64,000 nt of DNA from an uncultured delta proteobacterium (GTDB taxonomy: Bacteria > Desulfobacterota > Binatia > Binatales > Binataceae), in NCBI GenBank assembly GCA_963808235.1, contig CAWEEQ010000004.1, forward strand, positions 1,472,001-1,536,000, in the 5' to 3' direction. The notes under the pieces were generated by a model. The model had not been told where the DNA came from. It did no database searches and saw only the letters and a list, made by a program, of their open reading frames with translations. Shown one piece after another: positions 33,049-59,669 of the stretch. Both the position numbers and the translations under genes were made by a program. The first letter of the stretch is position 1. Every line of letters starts with the position of its first letter.

Positions 33049-34280
33049 TCAGTTCGAGGTCACGGTCATCCCACGTCCGAACAACGATTCTATCAGGTGA
33101 TAGCCATCGCCGACGACCAGCCCGGTCCTGGTTCCGTCCGCTTCAGTGTATCGCCGCGCGATCCCGCGTTCCGACCTGAGCTGCGCTCGATTTCAGGAGC
33201 GCGAACGGCACCGGCTCCGGCGAATGCGTTTTCAACTGACTCGGAGTCGCGTGATCGGGCATCAGCAGAATCGCAAAATCGCCCAGCGCGCCGAGACCTG
33301 CGAGCATCGGCCCGATGATCAACTCGTCGATTCGCTCGATCGCTTCCTTCTTCAGATCGGCACGTCCCATGTGACCGGCCTCATCCGGCGCTTCGATGTG
33401 CAAGAGCAGGAAGTCGCGCGCTTTCAGCGACTCGAGACCATATCGCGCCTTCGCGGCGTAATCGGTATCGAGAAAACCGGTCGCGCCCGGCACCTTGATC
33501 AGATTCAGCCCCGCGAGCCTTCCGAGCCCGTTGACCAGGTCCACGGCGGAGATCACTGAGCCCTCGACCCCAAACCGTTCCTTGAGCGTCGGCACCGACG
33601 GCCGCGTCCCCTGCCCCCAGAGCCAGATCGAGGTCGCCTCCGGCTTGCCCGCGGCGCGACGCGCCTTGTTCACCGGATGCTCCGCCAAAATTTTCGCAGC
33701 GCGAGTGGTCAGGTTGCGCAACAGGTCGGCGCCGGCGCCCTTGGGCAGATGAGGCTCGACCGGCTTGCCGGTGATGTCGTGCGGCGGAGTCAGATGCGTG
33801 GTCGCGATTCCACCGCGCCACATCATCAGATGCCGATAGCTGACACCGTTGAAAAATTCGATTCCGTCGCCGCCAAGTTCGGCGCGGATATCATCGACGA
33901 TCCGCGCGGCTTCTTCGCTGCTGATATGCCCCGACGTGAAATCGTTCATCACCAGCGCGCCAGCCATCGTCGGGTTTCAGCGAGACGAGGTTCATCCTGA
34001 ACACAACATCGCGCGGACCCATCTCGATTCCCTGGCTCGCGGCCTCTATCGGCGCGCGCCCGGTGTGATAGCGGGCCGGATCGTAGCCAAGCATCGTCAT
34101 GGTGCCGACGTCGCTGCCAGACGGCATCCCCTTGGGAATCGTCGCGACCATCCCGAGCGTGCCGCGAGTCGCGAGCAAATCCATATTCGGCTTGTGCGCT
34201 GCGTCGAGTGGAGTCTTCCCGCCAAGTTCCTCGCACGGCCAATCGGCCATCCCGTCGCCATGAATGATGATGTACTTCAT
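33049..34280 (-). CDS. apgM: Cofactor-independent phosphoglycerate mutase, frameshifts near 33963 and 33160
   Basis: GDGMAD, GSDV, GRAPIEAA, HIEAPDEAGH, PDHATP, H-x-x-EPVP; the shifted tail RRYTEA…GYHLIESLF ends at 33049. Confidence 0.9.
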
Positions 34281-34299
34281 CGCATCAACCGCGCGCTGA

Positions 34300-35398
34300 T
34301 CAGTCGCGCTCCAGGACTTTCAGCACTTTCTCGATGTCCGGTTCGACGACGATCGTGTTGCTCAAATTCTTGAGCGCGGTGTCTGGATCCTTCAGCCCAT
34401 GACCAGTCAGCGTGCAGACGACGACCGATCCGGGCTTAAGCATTCCGGTCCCCGCATACTTGAGCAGTCCCGCCACCGACGCCGCCGACGCAGGCTCGGC
34501 GAATACGCCACCGGCCGCGATCAGCCGATACGCCGCGAGGATTTCCGAGTCGGTCACGATGTCGATAACGCCGCCGGAGTCATCGCGCGCCGTCGTCGCG
34601 CCTTTCCAGCTCGCGGGATTTCCAATCTTGATCGCCGTCGCCACCGTATGCGGATCGTCAATCGGATGCCCCACGACAATCGGCGCCGACTCCGCCGCCT
34701 GGTAACCCATCATCTTCGGCACCCGCGCGCTCAACTCAGCATCGCGGTACTCCTGGTAGCCGGCCCAGTGTGCGGTGATATTTCCAGCGTTTCCGACCGG
34801 CAAAAAATGATGCGTCGGCGCGTCGCCGAGTTGATCGCAAATCTCGAACGCCGCGGTCTTCTGCCCCGCGATTCGATCCGGGTTCACACTATTAACGAGC
34901 CGGATGCGCACCGGGTCGCGCTCCGCGACGTCGCGCACCACCTTCAGGCAGATGTCGAAGTTGCCGATCACCTCGAGCACGCGCGCCCCATGCATCACGC
35001 TTTGCGAAAGCTTGCCCAGCGCGACCGCGCCCTTGGGAATCAGCACGTAGGCTTTCAGCCCCGCGCGTCCCGCATATGCCGCCGCCGACGCCGCTGTGTT
35101 GCCCGTCGACGCGCAGATCACCGCGCGAGCGCCCTCGCCCAGCGCCTTCGAGATTGCGACCGTCATCCCGCGGTCCTTGAAAGAGCCGGTAGGGTTGGCG
35201 CCCTCAAACTTAAAGTAAACCTTGACGTTTAGCCCAAGCCGGTCCGCGATCGCCGGCGCCTCGATAAGCGGCGTGTTGCCTTCGTTCAGCGTGACGATCG
35301 GAGTTGAATCTGTCACCGGCAGGAAGCGCCGGTAATGTTCGATCAGACCCGGCCAGTGCGACAAACGCTGCGACTGGATTTTTCGGGTCGGAGGCCAT
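34300..35398 (-). CDS. thrC: Threonine synthase (start uncertain; probable extra A in a homopolymer near 35380)
   Basis: EGNTPL, NPTGSFKDRG, ASTGNT, PVGNAGN, TGHGLKD. Confidence 0.93.
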
Positions 35399-45441: not shown

Positions 45442-46899
45442 TTATTCCTGAGTCAGCTTGGGCTTGGCCGACATGCGCGGCAGGATCGATTTTGCGCTCG
45501 AGGAATCTGCAGCCAGTTCGAGACCGTTGGCAGAGAAACTCAGCTCGCGCAGGTTGGAATCGAAGGCACTGTCGCGAACTTTCAGTATCGACACCATCCT
45601 GTACACGCTCGCTTCCGACTCGACGTAGCGCAGCAGGATGTGATTATCAGTAACGTCGGATAAGCCCTGCAGCGGCACCGTGATGGTCGGTCCAACTACC
45701 TCCATTACTTCAGCGGTGCAGATTGTGGTCACACCTTGCGAACGCAACTCGTGCACCAGCGCGGAAAAGAATGGCTCGATCGGTCTCGAGCGAAGGGCTT
45801 TCTTGAAACCGCCGAGACCGTCGATCAGCAGCCGCTTGACCTTTCTGCGCTTGATATCGCGAAGCATCCGGTCAGCTAGCTCGTCGAGAAACTGATCGGT
45901 CGGCGCCTGCCATAAAATCTGCACGTGGCCGCTGTCTAGCTGCCTGGTCAGCGCAGGACATATCGCTTTCGCCTTGGCATGTATCCGGGCCGGGGTCTCG
46001 TAGAAGCCGAACAACAGCCCGGGTTCCTGCGCGTTCGAGTTGGCCAGGAATTGCAGCCCCAGGATGGTCTTGCCGGTGCCCGAAGGTCCAATCAGCATGG
46101 TCGCTGATCGCGCGGGCAACCCGCCACCAAGCATTTCATCAAGGCGCGCACTGCCCGACGAGATCCGCCGCAACTCGCCATTGAGGTCTGTATGAGGCCC
46201 GATCAGGGTTTCCAGCCGCGGATAAACCGTAACTCCGTTCCCGGTGATGTCGTAGGAATGAACGCCCTGAAGATAACTGCTGCCGCGAAACTTTCGCACG
46301 CACAGTTCGCGCGCCGAGCGCCATTCATGGATCGTCGTATCAAGGTTGATGATGCCGTCCACCATCGTCTCTTCGGACGAAGGTTCATGCGGAGTCGGAT
46401 TGGTCAGCAAAAAAACCGTGCAATTGGCGGCGTCGGCTTGCGTCTGTAGCTGCTGCACAAACAGCTTCAATTCCTCGTAGGAGTGCGCATTGTCCGACGC
46501 TGATGCAAATCCGTCGACGATCAGGGTCGTAGCTTTGCGCGACGCAACTTCCCTTCGCAGCAAATGCAGCAGCCCGGTCAAACCATCTTTCTTCAACGCG
46601 TTGAAACCACTGACGTAAAAAATGCCGTTTCCAACCGCCTCTTCATTGAAGAACGCGAGGTTCTTGATGTTAAGCAGCATGCGGCTGACAGTTTCCGCGA
46701 TCAGCGTGACGTAAAGGACTTTGCCTCCGGCGCTGGCATGATTGAAGCAAATTTGATTCCCGAGGATCGTCTTGCCGACTCCCGGCGCCCCCTCGACAAT
46801 GTACAGTCCGCCGCTAAAGAAGCCCCCTCCCAGGATGTCGTCGAGACCTTTCACTCCCGAGGGGACGCGCGTGAGCTGTTGAAGTTCTTGCTTACTCAT
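45442..46899 (-). CDS. KaiC-like double RecA-domain ATPase
   Basis: SGVKGLD…GAPGVGKT; SGSARLD…GPSGTGKT; RKFRGS; LLRYVE…LKVRDS. Confidence 0.9.
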   Translation of the reverse strand: MSKQELQQLTRVPSGVKGLDDILGGGFFSGGLYIVEGAPGVGKTILGNQICFNHASAGGKVLYVTLIAETVSRMLLNIKNLAFFNEEAVGNGIFYVSGFNALKKDGLTGLLHLLRREVASRKATTLIVDGFASASDNAHSYEELKLFVQQLQTQADAANCTVFLLTNPTPHEPSSEETMVDGIINLDTTIHEWRSARELCVRKFRGSSYLQGVHSYDITGNGVTVYPRLETLIGPHTDLNGELRRISSGSARLDEMLGGGLPARSATMLIGPSGTGKTILGLQFLANSNAQEPGLLFGFYETPARIHAKAKAICPALTRQLDSGHVQILWQAPTDQFLDELADRMLRDIKRRKVKRLLIDGLGGFKKALRSRPIEPFFSALVHELRSQGVTTICTAEVMEVVGPTITVPLQGLSDVTDNHILLRYVESEASVYRMVSILKVRDSAFDSNLRELSFSANGLELAADSSSAKSILPRMSAKPKLTQE

Positions 46900-47719
46900 G
46901 ATTTTCCTGTGGCCAGATCGGTAACGTTACGGTGAAAGTAGAGCCAACCCCGGGTTCGCCGACTACGCTTATCGACCCACCCATCCGCTCCGCGAGGTTG
47001 CGTGTGAGCCACAGCCCAATTCCGAAACCGGCCTGAACTTCTCTGCCTACCGCCCTCTCAAAACGCTCGAAGATGCGCTGCTTGTCTTTTTCATTGATGC
47101 CAATCCCGCTGTCTTGCACAATTATCTGGGCGCAATCGGGAGTCGCGGTCAGCGTAAGCGCTATCGGTTTGCGCTGGCCAAATTTGATCGCGTTGGAAAG
47201 TAGATTTTCCACGATTTGCGATGCCGCGAGCCTGTCAACATACGCCACCACTCCATCCTGGATATCGGTAGTCAGCTCGGAACCGCTGCGATCTACTAAC
47301 GGCTTTTGATCCTCCACGATACTCTCTACCAGTTCAGACAAGTTCTGCTCGGTATTGTCCAACTGCAACTTGTTCGAAGTTACTTGCGAAACCTCGAGCA
47401 GTGTGTTGGCCCGCGCTACGAAGTGTTGAATGAGACGCTGAAGCCGGTCCAGCTTGGAAATAGCCATGGCATGATTTCCCGACAGTGCACCCGCACGGAT
47501 GAGCTGCGCGCAAAGCAGGATCGGAGTCATCGGATTGCGCAGTTCGTGCGCCGCGATCGCCAGAAAATCGTCGCGGCGGCGAATCGCCTCGCGCAACTCC
47601 TCGATAAGCAGATCGCGCCCGTCCGGTGCAGGCGCATTGGCCGGCAAGGGCGCGTTTCCGCTACCCGTTCTCCGGTCCGAGAAATCCTGCTCTGAATTGC
47701 CGTTGGTACTCTTCGACAT
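46892..47719 (-). CDS. Histidine kinase lacking an obvious sensor domain
   Basis: AAHELRNPM about 55 aa from the start; NAIKF, DSGIG, GFGIGL. Confidence 0.88.
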   Translation of the reverse strand: MSKSTNGNSEQDFSDRRTGSGNAPLPANAPAPDGRDLLIEELREAIRRRDDFLAIAAHELRNPMTPILLCAQLIRAGALSGNHAMAISKLDRLQRLIQHFVARANTLLEVSQVTSNKLQLDNTEQNLSELVESIVEDQKPLVDRSGSELTTDIQDGVVAYVDRLAASQIVENLLSNAIKFGQRKPIALTLTATPDCAQIIVQDSGIGINEKDKQRIFERFERAVGREVQAGFGIGLWLTRNLAERMGGSISVVGEPGVGSTFTVTLPIWPQENHE

Positions 47720-49521: not shown

Positions 49522-50700
49522 ATGTCAGAAAAGCGCACCCGACTCGCATCCCTCGCCGCCGAACTCGCGACCGACTTCGCGACTCGCGCCGGCCAGCACG
49601 ATCGTGACAATTCATTTCCTGTTGAAAACGTTGACAAGATGAAGGCCGCCGGTTACACCGCGCTCGTTATTCCAGAAAAGCACGGCGGCCTCGGCGCCGA
49701 CCTCGAGGATTTCGCCGCCTGCCAGGAAGAGCTCGCACAGGGATGCGCCGCGACCACGATCGCAATCAACATGCACCTGTTCGGCATCGGCAGCATGGTC
49801 GAGCGCGCGACTGGACGTCCGCAAGAGGAATTTTTCTTCGATGTGATCGGGCGCAACAAGCAAATCCTGGGCGGCGGTATCAGCGAGCCCGAAACTGGCG
49901 GCGATTGGGGCTACTTCGCGACTCGCGCGCGGCGCGACGGCGACTATTACATCCTGAACGGTCGCAAGACCTTCACCAGCCTCTCGCCGGTGATCGATCT
50001 GTTTATGGTGATGGCGACGATCGAGGATTCCAATCCTCCCGCAGCCGCGACCTTCGTCGTCCCGCGCGGCACTCCCGGCCTCGAGCTGATCGAGACCTGG
50101 GACGCGATGGGCATGCGCGCAACCGCGAGCCACGACCTCAATATCAAGGACGTCCGGGTTCCCGCGCTTGCGATGGCGGAGTCGCGACCAGTCGGCCCCG
50201 TCAACGACCAGGCGATTTCGCTGTTCGCATGGTTCGGCGTATCGGTCGCCGCCACTTACACCGGAGTCGCAATCGCCGCGCTGAAATTCGCCAAAGAATT
50301 TGCCGGACGCCTCAAGCCGCTCACGATGCCGCGTACGATCAAGTATCTGCCCGGCGTTCAGTTCGCGATCGCCGACGCCGAAGCACTCATCGCGCAATCG
50401 CGCGCGCTGTATTACGGCGTCGCGGCCGACTACATCCGCGATCGCAGTTCGTTCAAGGGGGAGGCAGGGCTGGCGCGAGTCGTGATGCCGAAATATGTCG
50501 CGACCAACAATGCGATCCGCGCCGTCGATTACTGCATGGAGGTCGTCGGCGCGCACGGGATGCTGAAAAAATTCCCGATGGAGCGCTACTACCGCGACGT
50601 TCGCGCCGGAGTAAATCACCCGCTCTCCAACGCCCGCGCCCGCGAGCTGTTGGGCAAAGCCGCTCTCGGCGTACGCCTCGGCGAAACTCCACGCTGGTAA
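49522..50700 (+). CDS. Acyl-CoA dehydrogenase family protein (DszC/SfnB-like branch possible)
   Basis: AINMH, SEPETGG, NGRKTF, WDAMGMRATASH, ERYYRDVR. Confidence 0.85.
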   Translation: MSEKRTRLASLAAELATDFATRAGQHDRDNSFPVENVDKMKAAGYTALVIPEKHGGLGADLEDFAACQEELAQGCAATTIAINMHLFGIGSMVERATGRPQEEFFFDVIGRNKQILGGGISEPETGGDWGYFATRARRDGDYYILNGRKTFTSLSPVIDLFMVMATIEDSNPPAAATFVVPRGTPGLELIETWDAMGMRATASHDLNIKDVRVPALAMAESRPVGPVNDQAISLFAWFGVSVAATYTGVAIAALKFAKEFAGRLKPLTMPRTIKYLPGVQFAIADAEALIAQSRALYYGVAADYIRDRSSFKGEAGLARVVMPKYVATNNAIRAVDYCMEVVGAHGMLKKFPMERYYRDVRAGVNHPLSNARARELLGKAALGVRLGETPRW

Positions 50701-50806
50701 ATTCGAACGAGTCAACGCTCAAGCACGATCCGCACATTCGCGATCTGTCGATAGATTTTTCTCGCCCGCTGGACGCTTCGCGCGGCGTGGAATATCGTCC
50801 GTCACC

Positions 50807-51641
50807 GTGGAGAACGAAATCGAACAAATCGCCGTCCGCGCCGCGCGCGCGGCCGGCAGAATTCACTTGAAGCGGCTCAGCCGAATCACCGTAAATCGCA
50901 AGTCGAATTCGATCGACCTGGTCACCGAAGCCGACCGCGAGTCGGAAGCTGCGATTATCGAAGTGATCCATCGCGCGTTTCCCACTCACGCCGATGCTCG
51001 CCGAGGAAAGCGGCGCCAGCGCGCATCAGAGCGACCATCGATGGATCATCGATCCGCTCGACGGCACCACCAACTTCGCGCACGGCTTCCCGCAGTTCTG
51101 CGTCTCGATCGCCTACGAACGCCGCGGCCGTGTCGAGCTCGGCGTGGTCTTCGACGCGCTGAAGCGGGAATGCTTCATCGCACAACGCGGGCACGGAGCA
51201 CGTCTCAACGGCAAACCGATTCGCGTCAGCACGACGCCGAGCCTCGGCGCCTCGCTGCTCAGCACCGGTTTTCCCTACGATCGCCGCGAGCGCCGCCGCT
51301 TCTACCTATGCTTCTGGGAAGAATTGATGACCCGGGTGCAGGGCGTGCGCAGGACCGGCGCCGCCGCACTCGACCTCGCGTACGTGGCCGCGGGCCGCAC
51401 CGACGGATTCTGGGAATTCGGACTGAGGCCGTGGGACGTCGCCGCGGGCGCGCTGATCATCCAGGAGGCGCGCGGCCGGGTCACGAACATGGATGGCTCC
51501 GATCTCGATCTGAACGGCGCAAATATCGTCGCGAGCAACGCGCGCATCCACGATGAACTCATCGAGGTGCTGGCCGGCGCGCGCCCCGAAGCCGAGCGCC
51601 GCGAAGCCGAGATGATCCGCGAGACCAAGGTCTCCGCATAG
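50807..51641 (+). CDS. suhB: Inositol monophosphatase SuhB, frameshift near 50990
   Basis: DLVTEADRESE in one frame; EE…WIIDPLDGTTNF and WDVAAG in the next. Confidence 0.9.
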
Positions 51642-54757: not shown

Positions 54758-55618
54758 ATGAATCTCATCATAAAGGGGTTGTCCGCGGTCGTGCTGACCG
54801 TGGCGATGTCCGCGTTGGCTGCGTGTACGCCGATCCAGAATTCGTTCGGAACGGCCGATCCAACCAATCCCGCTTCGCAAATGGGATCCTCCAACGGGTT
54901 TGGATCGAATTCCACGATGCCGACTCCTTCCAGCGCAGGCACCGTGGTCGGCGGCGTTGTCGATTCACCCTCGAGCCAGGGACTCTCCGATTATTTGAAG
55001 CATCACCAATTGCCGTTGGTCGGCGCCCAGGTTGTCACCAGTTCGAGCGGCGGCCGCCAGGTTATCCTGTTCGGCTTTGTCGCGAGCGACTTCGGCAAGA
55101 CCGACGCCGAGCAGAAGGCTCGCCACTACCTGAAAGATCAATCGGTGGTCGTGGACAACCGGATAAAGATCAGCCCCGATCTGGCTGGCGCGGGCGGCAG
55201 CGCGGGATCGACCGTAAACGGTGTACCTTCAGCGAATGCGATGCCGTCGGATGGAACCGATCCGTACGCGGGCTCCGGTTCTATCCAGGACTACCAGAAC
55301 AACCAGCCCCCGGCCTTCGCCTCTCAATCCCAGCAGTACCAGCAGTACGGCAGCACCGGCGGCTCACCCAGCATGCTGACGACGATTATTCCGCTGATCG
55401 GAATGCTTGGCGGCGGATCGATCGGCGGCAGCAGTATGGGCGGAAGTTTCGGCGGATTCGGCGGCGGCGGATTCGGTGGTGGCTCCCCGGGCTTCGGAGG
55501 ATTCGGCGGTTCGCCAGGCTATGGCGGCGGCTACGGTGGCGGAGGTTACGGTGGCTATCCTTCGTATCCACCACCAACATCGCCATACGGTGGCGGCGCG
55601 CCCGCGTTTTCGTTCTGA
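54758..55618 (+). CDS. Lipoprotein with a BON-like domain and a Gly/Tyr/Phe-rich tail
   Basis: Lipobox LAAC; VILFGFV…VVDNRIKI; GGFGG/GGYGG repeats. Confidence 0.7.
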   Translation: MNLIIKGLSAVVLTVAMSALAACTPIQNSFGTADPTNPASQMGSSNGFGSNSTMPTPSSAGTVVGGVVDSPSSQGLSDYLKHHQLPLVGAQVVTSSSGGRQVILFGFVASDFGKTDAEQKARHYLKDQSVVVDNRIKISPDLAGAGGSAGSTVNGVPSANAMPSDGTDPYAGSGSIQDYQNNQPPAFASQSQQYQQYGSTGGSPSMLTTIIPLIGMLGGGSIGGSSMGGSFGGFGGGGFGGGSPGFGGFGGSPGYGGGYGGGGYGGYPSYPPPTSPYGGGAPAFSF

Positions 55619-55625
55619 TCGCGAA

Positions 55626-56384
55626 CTAGTGCGCGAGCTTGAATCGCTCGCCGAGAAAGACCTGCCGCACCTGCTCGCTCGCAACAATGTCCCTCGGCTC
55701 CCCGTCAAACAGGATCTTGCCGGCGTGAATTATGTAAGCGCGATCGATTATCGAGAGCGTCGCTTGCACGTTGTGATCTGACATCAGCACGCCAATCCCC
55801 CGCTCCTTCAGGTACGTGACCACCCGCTGAATCTCGACCACGGTTATCGGATCGATTCCGGCGAACGGCTCATCCAGACACAGATAGACCGGATCGAGCA
55901 CCAGCGCGCGGGTGATCTCGACCCGGCGCCGCTCGCCGCCCGACAACACGCCCGCCTTCGCCTTCGCGAGCTTCGCGATTCCAAGTTCGTCGAGCAGAGA
56001 TTGCAAGCGTGCGCGGCGCTCTTCGTCGGTGAGCGGCAACGTCTCCAGCACCGCGAGCAGATTCTCCTCGACGGTCAGCTTGCGGAACACGCTGGGCTCC
56101 TGTGGCAGGTAGGAGATTCCCCGCCGCGCGCGCTGATAGAGCGGCAGCGTCGTGATGTCCTCCTCGCCGAATACGACCCGCCCCTTGTCGGGCTTCAGCA
56201 GTCCCACCAGCATGTAGAAGGTCGTCGTCTTGCCGGCGCCATTGGGCCCCAGAAATCCAACCACTTCGCCCGGCTTGACGTTCACGTCGACGTTGTCGAC
56301 GACCGCGCGCCCGCCATAGACCTTGGTCAGTCCCTCGCCACGCAGCGACTGCGCGGACGCCGCTTGAACAGGCGCGCCATTCAC
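55626..56384 (-). CDS. lptB: LPS export ABC ATPase LptB
   Basis: GPNGAGKTTTFY, YLPQEPSVFRKL, LSGGERRR, DEPFAGIDP, LGERF. Confidence 0.93.
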   Translation of the reverse strand: MNGAPVQAASAQSLRGEGLTKVYGGRAVVDNVDVNVKPGEVVGFLGPNGAGKTTTFYMLVGLLKPDKGRVVFGEEDITTLPLYQRARRGISYLPQEPSVFRKLTVEENLLAVLETLPLTDEERRARLQSLLDELGIAKLAKAKAGVLSGGERRRVEITRALVLDPVYLCLDEPFAGIDPITVVEIQRVVTYLKERGIGVLMSDHNVQATLSIIDRAYIIHAGKILFDGEPRDIVASEQVRQVFLGERFKLAH

Positions 56385-56504
56385 TTCGCCGGATTTTAAA
56401 TTTTTCGCTATTGCCACAACAAAAGCCGTTCGACCCAATTCCCCTAGAACTTATCGGCTTTGCGCAAGATATGAAACGTTCCGCCGTGATCGGCAATCTG
56501 CCGA

Positions 56505-57173
56505 TTACGAATTTGCGGTCTGCGGCGACTGCATTCCCGAAAGCATCCCGATGAGCAGCATGACGGTGACATCCGCCGCGCCGAGAGCCGCGCGATTCCA
56601 CTCTATACCGCCGGCGGGAAGCATCACGCCCTCGCCAGGCTCGAGGATGACGCGAATTCGCGCCGATTGCGCGCCGGACTCCGCGCCGAGAAACACTGCG
56701 GCGTTCTCGTCGCCGAGGTTGATACACGCGAGCGTCGTACCGACGCCCGCGCTGAATCGCGTCGCTCGGCTCGATTGCAGCACAACCGCTCCATCGTTCT
56801 CAGCGACTCCCGTTTGCCCGCCGTCGGAGACGATCACCTCCATCACGGCATCCGAGGGGAGCAACCAGTTTTTGTAATCGAAATAGGCCGCCACCTCACG
56901 CGCATACCCTTCGAATCCGGCGGATATGTTGCTCGGATTATCGTCGCCCGATTCGGCGAGACTCCACCATCGCTTCAACAGATGCCTTGGTATCGCGATC
57001 ACTGACACATCGGTAGGCAACGACGCTCCGTCGTCGGAACATGATGCCGCGAGCTCGCTCGCGTCGGCGGGGCGCCATCCGGTCGGTCCTGGCACCTGCA
57101 CTCTTTCAGCCAGAGTCAGCCGGCTCTGATATCGAGCCGCGTGGCGTATTCGACAAGCCGGCGCAACCTTCAT
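56505..57173 (-). CDS. Hypothetical protein co-oriented with the rSAM; possible cupin/DSBH fold
   Basis: Starts 20 nt after the rSAM stop; CINLGDE…RVILEPGEGVMLP pattern. Confidence 0.55.
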   Translation of the reverse strand: MKVAPACRIRHAARYQSRLTLAERVQVPGPTGWRPADASELAASCSDDGASLPTDVSVIAIPRHLLKRWWSLAESGDDNPSNISAGFEGYAREVAAYFDYKNWLLPSDAVMEVIVSDGGQTGVAENDGAVVLQSSRATRFSAGVGTTLACINLGDENAAVFLGAESGAQSARIRVILEPGEGVMLPAGGIEWNRAALGAADVTVMLLIGMLSGMQSPQTANS

Positions 57174-57192
57174 CGACCTAAGCGAGTCGAAT

Positions 57193-58357
57193 TCAGGTGA
57201 CGACCGCTGCGTCGCCGCTTGGATGCCGTAGTCGTGCGACAATCACGTCGACCAGCACTTTGCGATTGAGGCGGCAGAACATGGTCTCGGTGGAATCGAA
57301 CGAGCCATTCTCGAAGTACTTATTCACCGGCGCGCCGCCGCCGCACAAGCCGTAGTACTCACATGTGTCGCGGCACTTGCTCAGCCCGCGTGCAATATCA
57401 GTACTCATATGCCGGAACTTGTCGCCATTGATCGCTGTGGCGAGTGTATCCGTCTTCACGTTGCCTATAGCGAAGTCGCCGTAGTGACTACTCTTGAGTC
57501 CAAGCAGCTCGGGCGAGTAGGTAGTGAAGTTGCCTTCGCAGTCGATACTGAGTATCGCACCAGGCGCGTTTTCCTGCGTCAGAGGAACATCGTCTGAGCC
57601 GGCGCCAAGAATCAGCGGAACCATCGAATCGAACTCGCGCACGCTCATGGCCAGGTCGTCGCGCGCGACCAGATCGAAGAATCTTCCGATGAAGCGTCCG
57701 AATCTATTTTCGATTCCCGCCGCGCCGAGTGTCGACGAGGCGTGCGGTCCTTCGATCTCTTCGATATTGAACGCGACCTCCCGGAACGTCGTTCTCCAGG
57801 TAGAAGTCATAGAGTTCGTCCGCGTAATCGAGCGACTCGCCGGTAAGCACGGAGATTACGTGGAAGGGCACCTTGTTGCTCTGCAGTTTTCGGATCCCCG
57901 CCATCACGCGATGATGAGTCGCGCCGCCCTTGCGGGTCTTTCGATAGCGATCGTGAAGAAACGCCGGCCCGTCAACGCTGACTCCGACGTTGACGCCATG
58001 CGCGTTGAAAAAATCGCACCATGCGTCGTCGATCAGAACGCCGTTGGTCTGAAACGAGTGACGCACCTGCGCGCCGTCCGGATTGTGATTGGCGATAATC
58101 CCGATCGCGGTTTCGTAGTAGCCGACCGGCAGGACCATCGGTTCTCCCGCGTGCCAGACCACGGTGAAGCCCTGCTCGACGATTCCGCTTTCGAAGACGA
58201 ATTGAAAAACGCGCTTCAGCGTCGCTTCCGACATTCGGCGCGTAGAGTCGCGATCGGGCAGGTAGCAGTACGAGCAGTCGAGATTACAGAACGGAGTCGG
58301 CTGCAGAACTAGTAACTCGAGTGGCCCAGCGATTCGCCATCTATTGACCGCGGCCAT
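57193..58357 (-). CDS. grrM: GrrM/OscB-type cyclophane-forming radical SAM/SPASM peptide maturase, frameshift near 57785
   Basis: LVLQPTPFCNLDCSYCYLP, WHAGEP, QTNG, SVDGP, FNIEE, YSPEL, CRDTCEYYGLCGGGAPVNKYFENG…TETMFC. Confidence 0.9.
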
Positions 58358-58426
58358 CTTCAATTCTGCCCGACGCGCGCTCGCGGCGTCCGAGGCGGCG
58401 CTACTTCGAGTCCGCGACTTGAAAAC

Positions 58427-58753
58427 TTACCAATTGCGCCAGTTATGCCAGTTGTGCCAGTTCGGCCAGCCCCATCCGCGCCATCCACCGTTGCGCCAAT
58501 TGCGCCACCATGCGAGCTGCACGGTTGAGTCGCCTTGCTTGATCAGGTTGGCGTTGGCGTCTTGAGCCTGAGGGCGCACCTTCTCGACGCGTTGCTTGAG
58601 ACTGTCCGTGGGATTGCTGTCCGCGACGTTGGCGCCCGCAGGGAGCGCACTCAGGATCGTAGTCGCGAGCACGATCGTGCTGGCGCTAGTGCCGATGATC
58701 GCGCGGAGACGTTCTTTAAGTTTTTGTCGATTCGCGGGCTGGTCGGATTTCAC
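58427..58753 (-). CDS. GrrA/OscA-type triceptide RiPP precursor (108 aa)
   Basis: RBS AAGGAGGA then GTG; core WWRNWRNGGWRGWGWPNWHNWHNWRNW*; directly upstream of the rSAM. Confidence 0.9.
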   Translation of the reverse strand: MKSDQPANRQKLKERLRAIIGTSASTIVLATTILSALPAGANVADSNPTDSLKQRVEKVRPQAQDANANLIKQGDSTVQLAWWRNWRNGGWRGWGWPNWHNWHNWRNW

Positions 58754-59024: not shown

Positions 59025-59669
59025 ATGCGATTTCGGCCCACTCTTTCAGCGGTAATCCTCGTCTCAAGTCTGCTCGGCGCCAGTCCCTTCCTGATGGCTG
59101 CCGATGAGCATCCTCCGGAGCCGGCAAATCCGGAATACGCGCAATGGTCTCACTTCAAACCCGGCAGCTACGTCACCCTCGAGCGAAAAGTACTCGAACA
59201 CCGCGAGAGTAATCCGGGTGTCGTCGAGGCGATGGCGCATCCGCCGGGCGCCGCCGTCATGCGCATCAGCAGCAAGTTGGTCGATCTCGACAAGGACAAA
59301 GCCGTTCTCGAGGAGACCAGGATCGATCTCGGCGACGGCAGCGAAACCGAGATGCCTCCCGACAAGGTGACGCTCTTCGCCAGTGGCTCGGTCAGCGATG
59401 CGACCGATTCACTGATGGAGGCGCCGGCGAAGCAGGAAGACGTCAAGGCGACCGAGGGCGACGAAGAAGTGTCCGTACACGGAAACAAGATCAAGGCGCA
59501 CTGGGTCGAGACCTCGGTCAAGACCGGCTCCGAAGTATCCACCTCGAAGGACTGGCTGTCGGATGACATTCCCGGCGGCCTGATCAAGGAAGAGGTCAAG
59601 AAAACTATCGGTGGGAAGCTGGTGCTGGAATCGGTGACCAAGGTGATCGATTACAAATCCGCTTCCTGA
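59025..59669 (+). CDS. Secreted beta-rich hypothetical protein
   Basis: GGAGG RBS, signal peptide, W-x-x-FKPG, WLSDDIPGGLIK. Confidence 0.75.
   Translation: MRFRPTLSAVILVSSLLGASPFLMAADEHPPEPANPEYAQWSHFKPGSYVTLERKVLEHRESNPGVVEAMAHPPGAAVMRISSKLVDLDKDKAVLEETRIDLGDGSETEMPPDKVTLFASGSVSDATDSLMEAPAKQEDVKATEGDEEVSVHGNKIKAHWVETSVKTGSEVSTSKDWLSDDIPGGLIKEEVKKTIGGKLVLESVTKVIDYKSAS

Follow-up and report, generated by a model that had tools for sequence, protein, structure and literature searches.

A GrrM/OscB-type triceptide locus in Candidatus Binatus with a putative export-coupled maturation

What does a locus make when it places a tryptophan-rich precursor peptide beside a radical S-adenosylmethionine (SAM) enzyme, and where would the product go? 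The question is raised by positions 56505–58753 of a 64,000-nucleotide stretch of DNA from Candidatus Binatus, an uncultured soil bacterium; we refer to the whole stretch as the window. An earlier note on this DNA had described a precursor gene, a radical SAM/SPASM gene and a third co-oriented gene as a compact triceptide locus, triceptides being peptides made on the ribosome and modified after translation (RiPPs) that bear three-residue cyclophanes. Our analysis indicates that the locus is probably best explained as a cassette of four genes that belongs to the GrrM/OscB branch of the triceptide RiPPs, with a maturation coupled to export. The three genes and the range 56505–58753 stand as the earlier note gave them; it missed the signal-like N-terminus of the precursor and a divergent fourth gene. 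The features are the following.

58427–58753 including the stop codon (coding part 58430–58753), minus strand: precursor gene, from open reading frame (ORF) analysis, 37 homologues and their alignment (A1).
58631–58753, minus strand: precursor residues 1–41, signal-peptide-like and the predicted binding site of the third protein, from hydropathy, A1 and a model of the complex.
58574–58594, minus strand: leader motif Q54-R55-V56-E57-K58-V59-R60 (RVEKVR), from alignments A1 and A4.
58430–58510, minus strand: core peptide, residues 82–108 (27 residues), with six W-x-N motifs, from the ORF reading and a motif count.
57193–58357, minus strand: radical SAM/SPASM maturase of the GrrM/OscB family, frame broken, from TIGR04261, Pfam, tblastn and a tree.
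56505–57173, minus strand: third gene, for a putatively cytoplasmic double-stranded beta-helix (DSBH) protein of 222 residues, from start and conservation, an AlphaFold 2 (AF2) model, Foldseek and a match to MicC.
59025–59669, plus strand, divergent: putatively exported protein of 214 residues without a named family, modeled as a LolA/LprG/RseB-like open beta-barrel, from the ORF, the A3 hidden Markov model (HMM), AF2 and Foldseek.

The precursor frame opens with a GTG at 58753, five nucleotides past GAAGGAGG, and encodes 108 residues ending in WWRNWRNGGWRGWGWPNWHNWHNWRNW (window ORF analysis); its homologues of 107–108 residues share the same start position. The architecture has three parts, a signal-like segment (residues 1–41), the RVEKVR leader motif and the six-motif core. 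The W-x-N motifs occupy residues 83–85, 86–88, 96–98, 99–101, 102–104 and 105–107, so that the final four are contiguous, as previously reported for this DNA. With 10 Trp, 6 Asn, 4 Arg, 2 His, 4 Gly and no acidic residue, the core is also cationic, as had been claimed. From its six-frame composition, the window would be expected to hold 0.008 W-x-N per 25 positions; of its 1190 stop-to-stop segments of at least 30 residues, only that of the precursor has more than three aromatic-x-Asn motifs per 30 residues.

All named homologues among the 37 of the precursor come from Candidatus Binatus, and the core is near-identical in the Binatus homologues (A1, 38 sequences). For the other two proteins, too, the homologues that carry a name are from this organism. 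The host is Candidatus Binatus, which bears out the earlier statement that it is not cyanobacterial. Within the leader, R55 is invariant both in A1 and in the cross-phylum alignment A4, which comprises 20 precursors from Binatota, Planctomycetota, Myxococcota, Verrucomicrobiota, Pseudomonadota and Cyanobacteriota. This conservation makes RVEKVR a candidate recognition element for the maturase.

The maturase gene starts with an ATG at 58357, seventy bases 3' of the precursor, and is read in two overlapping frames, 57704–58357 and 57193–57810. We handled the split gene as two halves, through an intact orthologue of 388 residues (P0148), and, for the tree, with an X at the break. The N-terminal half scores 242 bits against TIGR04261 (profile positions 1–178) and the C-terminal half 217 bits (177–361); the sum is 459 bits, each half on its own lying below the cut-off of 310. 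P0148, to which the halves are 87% and 83% identical, respectively, scores 487.7 bits over TIGR04261 positions 1–362, and 315.7 bits against the next family, AmcB, the cut-off of which is 425. The N-terminal half contains the radical SAM motif CX3CX2C as FCNLDCSYC and matches the Pfam Radical_SAM domain at 72.4 bits, whereas the C-terminal half has five Cys including a SPASM-type C-x3-C-x5-C. The stand-alone SPASM models score just under their cut-offs (TIGR04085, 24.8 versus 27 bits; PF13186, 17.7 versus 21.5). NCBI labels the Binatus orthologues, and likewise the enzymes of Gemmataceae and Isosphaeraceae, as 'cyclophane-forming radical SAM/SPASM peptide maturase GrrM/OscB'. Triceptides are defined by an aromatic-X-X precursor beside a radical SAM enzyme of the 3-CyFE type (PMC11499958), and here six W-x-N motifs lie directly upstream of a GrrM/OscB gene. 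The family assignment made in the earlier note thus holds, and the locus is almost certainly a GrrM/OscB-type triceptide locus.

How unusual is it? Scanning one genome per species with P0148 yielded 80 loci from about ten phyla, a sample biased toward relatives of the Binatus enzyme: 22 are of Binatus/Binataceae type and the rest belong to Planctomycetota, Verrucomicrobiota, Myxococcota, Pseudomonadota, Cyanobacteriota, Acidobacteriota and others. An upstream plus-strand ORF with at least three aromatic-x-Asn motifs in its last 60 residues is present in 71 of the 80. Sorted by precursor type, 53 loci have W-x-N and 18 a Gly-rich GGFRN (F-x-N) core, while nine lack a candidate. Tandem W-x-N cores are the commonest precursor form in this biased sample, and the W-x-N relatives often have more and tighter repeats than the window, for example 11 motifs and two tandem precursor genes in Adonisia. 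The locus type is neither rare nor limited to an unusual lineage: 53 of 80 related loci have tandem W-x-N, NCBI names the enzymes, and antiSMASH 8 includes a triceptide rule. In a quick maximum-likelihood tree of 79 loci and the window (L034, whose gene runs off its contig, was omitted), the window maturase falls in a 21-row Binatus clade with a Shimodaira–Hasegawa-like approximate likelihood ratio test (SH-aLRT) value of 100. Four cyanobacterial loci (L051, L054, L056, L076) form a separate clade, again with SH-aLRT 100; a fifth cyanobacterial locus, L078, sits on a long branch in another part of the tree.

Two groups of precursors in this sample deserve mention in their own right. Adonisia (L056:2983–3841) and Xenococcus (L051:2988–3863, both plus strand) have two tandem W-x-N/W-x-D precursor genes upstream of a single maturase, so that W-type cores occur in cyanobacteria beside the Gly-rich type. 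The verrucomicrobial precursors L041:3314–3793 and L044:1530–2015 (both plus strand) combine W-x-N/W-x-D cores with a His/Lys-rich run followed by Asp (...HHKHHKHHHNDDD), a tail that could be metal-binding.

We turn to the destination of the peptide. By inspection, precursor residues 1–41 comprise a Lys/Arg-rich n-region (K11, K13, R15, R17), a Gly-, Ser- and Thr-rich h-region spanning some 20 residues (A18–L37; maximum of 1.84 on the Kyte–Doolittle scale in a 15-residue frame) and then P38-A39-G40-A41, in which P38 and A41 are nearly invariant (A1). Of the 71 candidate precursors of related loci, 56 reach 1.6 or more at their hydropathy maximum over 15 residues. A simple RR pattern, two Arg followed by two hydrophobic residues, occurs in 14 of the 18 F-x-N loci, and a twin arginine is also visible by eye in L018, L043, L042 and L047. 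Many relatives have an unmistakable motif of this kind immediately ahead of the hydrophobic stretch, such as D-R-R-R-F-L-K-G (Gemmata), S-R-R-S-L-L-R (Hyphomicrobiales), N-R-R-N-F-L-D (Isosphaeraceae) and A-R-R-K-L-K (the sister Binataceae clade). Textbook motifs for twin-arginine translocation (Tat) appear in the GGFRN precursors of L024, L025, L027–L029, L032, L033, L036–L039, L066, L023 and L034, which suggests Tat export of a radical-SAM-modified peptide in loci of this type. In A4, the RR-x-F-L-type motifs of the relatives align to R9-Q10 of the window, which reads N-R-Q-K-L-K versus R-R-x-F/L-L/K; we infer from this alignment that the Binatus sequences lost the second Arg. The route would be Sec or a degenerate Tat in Binatus and appears clearly Tat-type in many relatives. 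On balance, we read the N-terminus of the window precursor as an export signal.

The same segment is where the third protein is predicted to bind. The model of the third protein with the precursor scores 0.71, versus 0.00 for the best of three controls; 116 of 157 solved complexes and 2 of 215 mismatched pairs attain this score, counts that are approximate because the alignments were our own. Between runs, at least 46% of the contacts agree, with a partner predicted local distance difference test (pLDDT) value of at least 42. Residues 70–95 and 105–117 of the third protein form the interface with precursor residues 6–35: in the confident contacts, strand 109–115 pairs with precursor residues 27–33, and precursor residues 6–21 lie on the helices at 70–95. 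The interface includes W70, invariant in the third-protein family alignment (A2), P106, near-invariant in A2, and precursor A24 and V28, near-invariant in A1. The model supports binding of the precursor by the third protein but does not show it, and since the contacts fall on residues 6–35, the predicted target is the signal segment and not the core.

Such an interface could also mean that the hydrophobic N-terminus is no export signal but solely a leader docking onto the third protein, with the latter as an adaptor of the RiPP precursor recognition element (RRE) type, in which case the product would stay in the cytoplasm or leave through an unlinked transporter. That the model places exactly this segment on the third protein, that the window has no RR and that GrrM-type enzymes open directly with the radical SAM core (profile position 1 corresponds to residues 18–20), which makes a separate adaptor plausible, all fit this proposal. 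It is nevertheless unlikely, in view of the n-h-c layout with a conserved P-A-x-A, the textbook Tat motifs of homologous precursors and a conserved partner in the cassette that bears a signal peptide of its own; moreover, the hydrophobic segment is also present in cyanobacterial and other precursors whose loci lack the third gene.

The break in the maturase frame bears on whether any peptide is made. In a tblastn comparison with P0148, the match passes from frame +1 to frame +2 one base apart; query residues 191 and 192 are adjacent across the change and no residues are lost, so that the defect is a single extra base near 57784. Its context is GTT C CGG GAG, and the surrounding sequence, TTCCGGGAGG, is not a long homopolymer. 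If this base were real, the locus would be a decaying pseudogene and the genome would make no cyclophane peptide, a possibility in line with the broken frame and with the position of the extra base outside any long homopolymer. Against it, both halves are otherwise intact, without further stops or losses, at the high identity to P0148 given above, and the precursor, third and LolA-like genes are intact. At least two housekeeping-type genes of the window are similarly frameshifted: a cofactor-independent phosphoglycerate mutase/homoserine-kinase-like (apgM-like) gene has profile positions 1–104 in 33894–34319 and 105–363 in 33146–33976, and in an inositol monophosphatase-like gene (50700–51638, plus strand) the profile match sets in at position 59; positions 1–58 are read in a different frame upstream of 50967, and the break lies near 50990. 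In related metagenome-assembled genomes (MAGs) with long contigs, the splits hit different genes of the cassette, namely the precursor in L014 and L022, the third gene in L021 and L029 and apparently the radical SAM gene in L021 and L022, where the longest radical SAM ORF covers 206 and 226, respectively, of the 388 residues of P0148; these lengths suggest that the two genes are split too, their exact breaks not having been mapped. The split-gene relatives all come from MAGs with contig_ names, mostly on very long contigs (107 kb for L029), and two loci with 'ilm_asm' in their names, L004 and L015, are intact. Because two more genes of the window and cassette genes of relatives are likewise broken, we take the frameshift as an assembly error; it is very probably an artefact, which leaves decay of the locus an improbable explanation. 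Any product from this genome depends on that interpretation.

Several observations on gene calls stand beside this one. The apgM-like gene (33146–34319, minus strand) sits in a homoserine dehydrogenase–threonine synthase operon. Read-through of the break by a four-letter code step was considered and dropped, as each possible word can also be read in frame at other places of the maturase gene. Several database copies of the precursor (P0022–P0026) are truncated or out of frame across the W-x-N repeat region; in long-read assemblies, gene calls for the family are unreliable.

Granted an intact enzyme, the chemistry would be that of the family. According to the excerpted text of a review (PMC11002830), OscB links Trp C7 to the C-beta of Asn or Asp and Phe C4 to the C-beta of Asn; W-x-N is a motif of this kind, and the earlier note thus proposed chemistry already known in the family. 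Within the cytoplasm, the enzyme would abstract a hydrogen from Asn C-beta and join this carbon to the Trp ring, at C7 as in OscB. By analogy with the family, the outcome would be up to six three-residue cyclophanes, each with a loss of 2 Da, and six rings on the core are a reasonable inference. The maturase might instead make fewer rings, attach them at other positions or use W-R-G and W-G-W. Ring position does differ between enzymes (Trp C6 for XncB and Trp C7 for OscB, in the same excerpted review, PMC11002830), overlapping or adjacent motifs may hinder one another, and the Binatus and cyanobacterial clades are separate on the tree, the latter including L054 and L076, the precursors of which match TIGR04260. 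However, N85, N98 and N101 vary hardly or not at all among the phyla of A4, as expected for cross-linked Asn, and the W-x-N spacing stays constant while the middle residue varies among Arg, His, Gly and Pro. We accordingly consider a departure from six Trp C7–Asn C-beta links improbable.

The third gene has a full ORF of 56505–57242, and its likelier start is the ATG at 57173, 20 nucleotides past the maturase stop. Neither Pfam nor NCBIfam holds a family for the protein, and members of its alignment gave scattered chance-level matches only. The family counts 610 representative clusters at E ≤ 0.001 in a library of 1.84 billion proteins and lies directly 3' of the enzyme in 46 of the 80 loci, with both W-x-N and GGFRN precursors. 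The AF2 model (pLDDT 86.1, predicted template modeling score 0.84) yields weak Foldseek matches to cupin/DSBH proteins (E 6e-4 to 6e-3, TMq 0.29–0.46), among them acireductone dioxygenase, RmlC, prolyl hydroxylases and Fe/2-oxoglutarate (2OG) enzymes. Compared with the sequences of the PDB, the A2 family profile has a single significant match, the 2OG/non-heme-iron oxygenase MicC (9VKM, chain 9vkm_A; E 3e-4, 23.5 bits). The excerpted text on MicC (PMC12912966) names H160, D162, H253, R188 and K266 as required for catalysis; the 9VKM chain numbering is that of the paper plus 20. In the third-protein family, the H-x-D falls in a variable segment that is deleted in short members, H253 corresponds to a hydrophobic position (Trp in the window), R188 to Ala and K266 to a hydrophobic position. 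Among the 135 of the 150 listed representatives that have 170–300 residues, no conserved His occupies a MicC ligand column: only positions 16 and 64 have His in at least 30%, and only H64, in the N-terminal helix outside the core, in at least 80%. From these replacements, the protein is best described as a MicC-like fold that appears to lack the catalytic apparatus. The ESM Atlas gave weak leads only, the top ones being unnamed viral clusters at 0.92.

It is very unlikely that the third protein is an active enzyme working on the cross-linked core at a non-canonical site, as a hydroxylase or a MicC-like oxidative cleaver: the distant homology to MicC, an oxidative triceptide cleaver, the DSBH fold, a set of conserved polar residues (R24, R34, E40, K101, N152, R174, E181) and an ESM Atlas lead, and a lead only, in which 2OG-FeII_Oxy_3 appears in 25% of one cluster (0.90), would fit such an activity, but all five residues that mutagenesis found essential in MicC are replaced, there is no family-wide His/Asp pattern at the DSBH opening, the segment bearing H-x-D is deleted in short forms of the family, and the complex model contacts the signal segment and not the core. 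A non-catalytic binder of the signal segment agrees better with the model, and we hold that role to be nearly an even prospect, though slightly short of one.

The fourth gene encodes the LolA-like protein of 214 residues, which has no Pfam, NCBIfam or sequence-level PDB match and no lipobox Cys; the members of its alignment, too, gave no more than scattered chance-level family matches. In searches with the A3 HMM, its gene adjoins the precursor gene in 33 of the 80 loci, including all 22 of Binatus/Binataceae type as well as loci of Planctomycetota and Myxococcota at 26–35% identity. The AF2 model has a pLDDT of 75.2, with residues 1–30 disordered and hydrophobic, and its best fold matches are LprG, LolA, LolB, RseB and MucB. 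The ESM Atlas returned unnamed Planctomycetota clusters at 0.97, which are leads only. Across phyla, the third-protein and the LolA-like families both accompany the maturase and its precursor. A carrier-like partner outside the cytoplasm would suit a peptide destined for the periplasm; that the LolA-like protein handles the product is a tentative suggestion from its modeled fold.

Assembled into one scheme, export-coupled maturation would proceed as follows. While the maturase cross-links the core in the cytoplasm, the third protein, presumably a catalytically dead relative of MicC, may clamp the hydrophobic signal segment by beta-strand pairing, and would then act as an adaptor for recognition, keep the peptide from being exported before its modification, or both. 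The modified peptide would then be exported and its signal cut near A41 or A44, after which the LolA-like protein might bind or handle the hydrophobic, Trp-rich product in the periplasm. Binding of the signal by the third protein, if true, would explain how a cytoplasmic radical SAM enzyme modifies the peptide before the export machinery takes it, and heterologous work on these peptides should then include the partner and consider the signal sequence. In Binatus species, the cassette keeps a syntenic position that appears to be inherited vertically, which speaks for a physiological function in the envelope of the cell and not for an accessory antibiotic. More speculatively, the triceptides of this clade might be envelope peptides and not secreted antibiotics, made with a Tat-derived leader, a dead MicC-like signal clamp that presents the precursor and blocks early export, and a LolA-like receiver; we regard this extension as possible but less likely than not.

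A number of results weigh against this account. As the sequence stands in the window, the maturase has no intact frame. The precursor has no match at E ≤ 1 to TIGR04260 (GrrA/OscA1, cut-off 31 bits), the model that the earlier note suggested as a check on it; 1 of the 38 precursor family members matches (E 1.9e-4), and the profile gives 22.6 bits to the Binatia relative L026 versus 80.4 and 78.4 bits to the cyanobacterial L054 and L076. The export signal was judged by inspection alone, and the window precursor has no twin arginine. The link to MicC consists of one profile match of 23.5 bits and weak fold matches, with 9VKM absent among the best 50 Foldseek matches listed, and the peptide in the complex model is largely hydrophobic and of low confidence (pLDDT 42–44). 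OscB, XncB and MscB are active in Escherichia coli with the precursor alone, in the excerpted review text (PMC11002830), so that cross-linking does not in general need a helper. The Foldseek matches of the LolA-like protein are weak (E 4.5e-4 to 6e-3, TMq 0.26–0.41), and cross-links have been seen neither in this peptide nor with any enzyme from Binatus.

In terms of novelty, the locus is one more uncharacterized triceptide cluster among an estimated ~3900 triceptide pathways (PMC11499958), recognized by standard annotation, and only the peptide itself is undescribed. What is more interesting is that precursors across the enzyme family appear to carry export signals and that two unnamed accessory families accompany them. 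The available part of a 2025 survey (PMC12452194) calls signal peptides rare among bacterial RiPP precursors and, for other RiPPs with Sec signals, cites only the enterocin P and cinnamycin papers, not triceptides; neither there nor in the available part of PMC10885120 are signal peptides tied to triceptides. A literature search found nothing joining twin-arginine, precursor peptide, radical SAM and RiPP. The export-coupled architecture, with a signal leader and dead MicC-like and LolA-like partners, was not found described in the literature searched, which did not include the primary triceptide papers, so that a prior description is possible.

Other neighbours in the window are treated as synteny and not as parts of the system. 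The lptB gene (55626–56438, minus strand; TIGR04406, 344.6 bits) lies 67 nucleotides 3' of the third gene on the same strand, a position kept in 16 of the 22 Binatus-type loci; the context is unusual, lptA and lptC not being adjacent. At 54758–55618 (plus strand), a gene encodes a 286-residue protein with a lipobox-like N-terminus (...LAAC) and a Gly-dominated tail with Phe, Tyr, Ser and Pro, without a family match, and it adjoins lptB in 16 Binatus loci only. We left both genes out because they are conserved neighbours within Binatus only. Farther away, 45445–46926 (minus strand) encodes a KaiC-like ATPase with a double RecA domain (NF006799, 197.6 bits, cut-off 408) in this non-cyanobacterial genome. 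Between precursor and maturase, an attenuator or terminator was considered and rejected: the folding of the 86-nucleotide spacer has a z of 0.46 and is equalled or surpassed by 132 of 200 shuffles. A scan for promoters and terminators gave 2 and 2 sites versus 1.0 and 3.1 expected, from which we claim nothing.

Among known systems, the closest is OscA/OscB (GrrA/GrrM), which has the same maturase family (TIGR04261), the same order of precursor and maturase and an aromatic-x-Asn motif, and whose precursors share an N-terminal hydrophobic segment, the invariant leader Arg and a repeated core. In contrast, the window core is rich in Trp, Arg and His with 4 Gly, where GGFRN cores have 16–25 Gly in their last 60 residues; the window precursor lacks the TIGR04260 signature, and its maturase belongs to a separate clade. 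In the cyanobacterial clade (L051, L054, L056, L076), the third family is represented by one weak match (L056, E 2e-7) and the LolA-like family by none, whereas both are present in the window.

The proposed role of the third protein recalls the Tat signal-peptide chaperones of the TorD/DmsD type, which are cytoplasmic, bind a Tat signal and delay export until a redox enzyme is matured. These chaperones are all-helical as opposed to the DSBH fold of the third protein and have no sequence relation to it; here, the substrate would be a short peptide, and the window signal has no RR. The best fold matches of the 214-residue protein, LolA, LolB, LprG, RseB and MucB, are periplasmic carriers or sensors of hydrophobic ligands.

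MicC, from the minviopeptin triceptide cluster (9VKM, PMC12912966), resembles the third protein in its DSBH fold and in being encoded beside a triceptide radical SAM enzyme, a pairing that the available text of that paper describes as frequent, with reported pairs in Actinomycetota and Bacteroidota (PMC12912966). The third protein differs in the replacement of all five catalytic residues and in its predicted contact, the precursor N-terminus, and we assume no Gly cleavage site.

The bufferins (BufA/BufB/BufC), as far as the available text of PMC12452194 describes them, offer the nearest parallel in logic: a signal replaces the classical leader, modification is cytoplasmic, and precursor, enzyme and partner genes follow in this order. 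They are likewise destined for the periplasm and have no dedicated transporter or protease, and in the same text the authors speculate that the partner keeps the Sec signal covered until the modification has finished (PMC12452194). The bufferin enzyme belongs to the multinuclear non-heme iron-dependent oxidases (MNIO) and is not a radical SAM protein, the partner is a DUF2063-RRE protein and the products contain Cys-derived, copper-binding heterocycles, so that no family relationship exists between the two systems. If the export-coupled reading of the Binatus cassette is true, it would be the second independent case of signal-peptide-directed RiPP maturation after the bufferins, and the first with a pseudo-enzyme as signal-binding partner.

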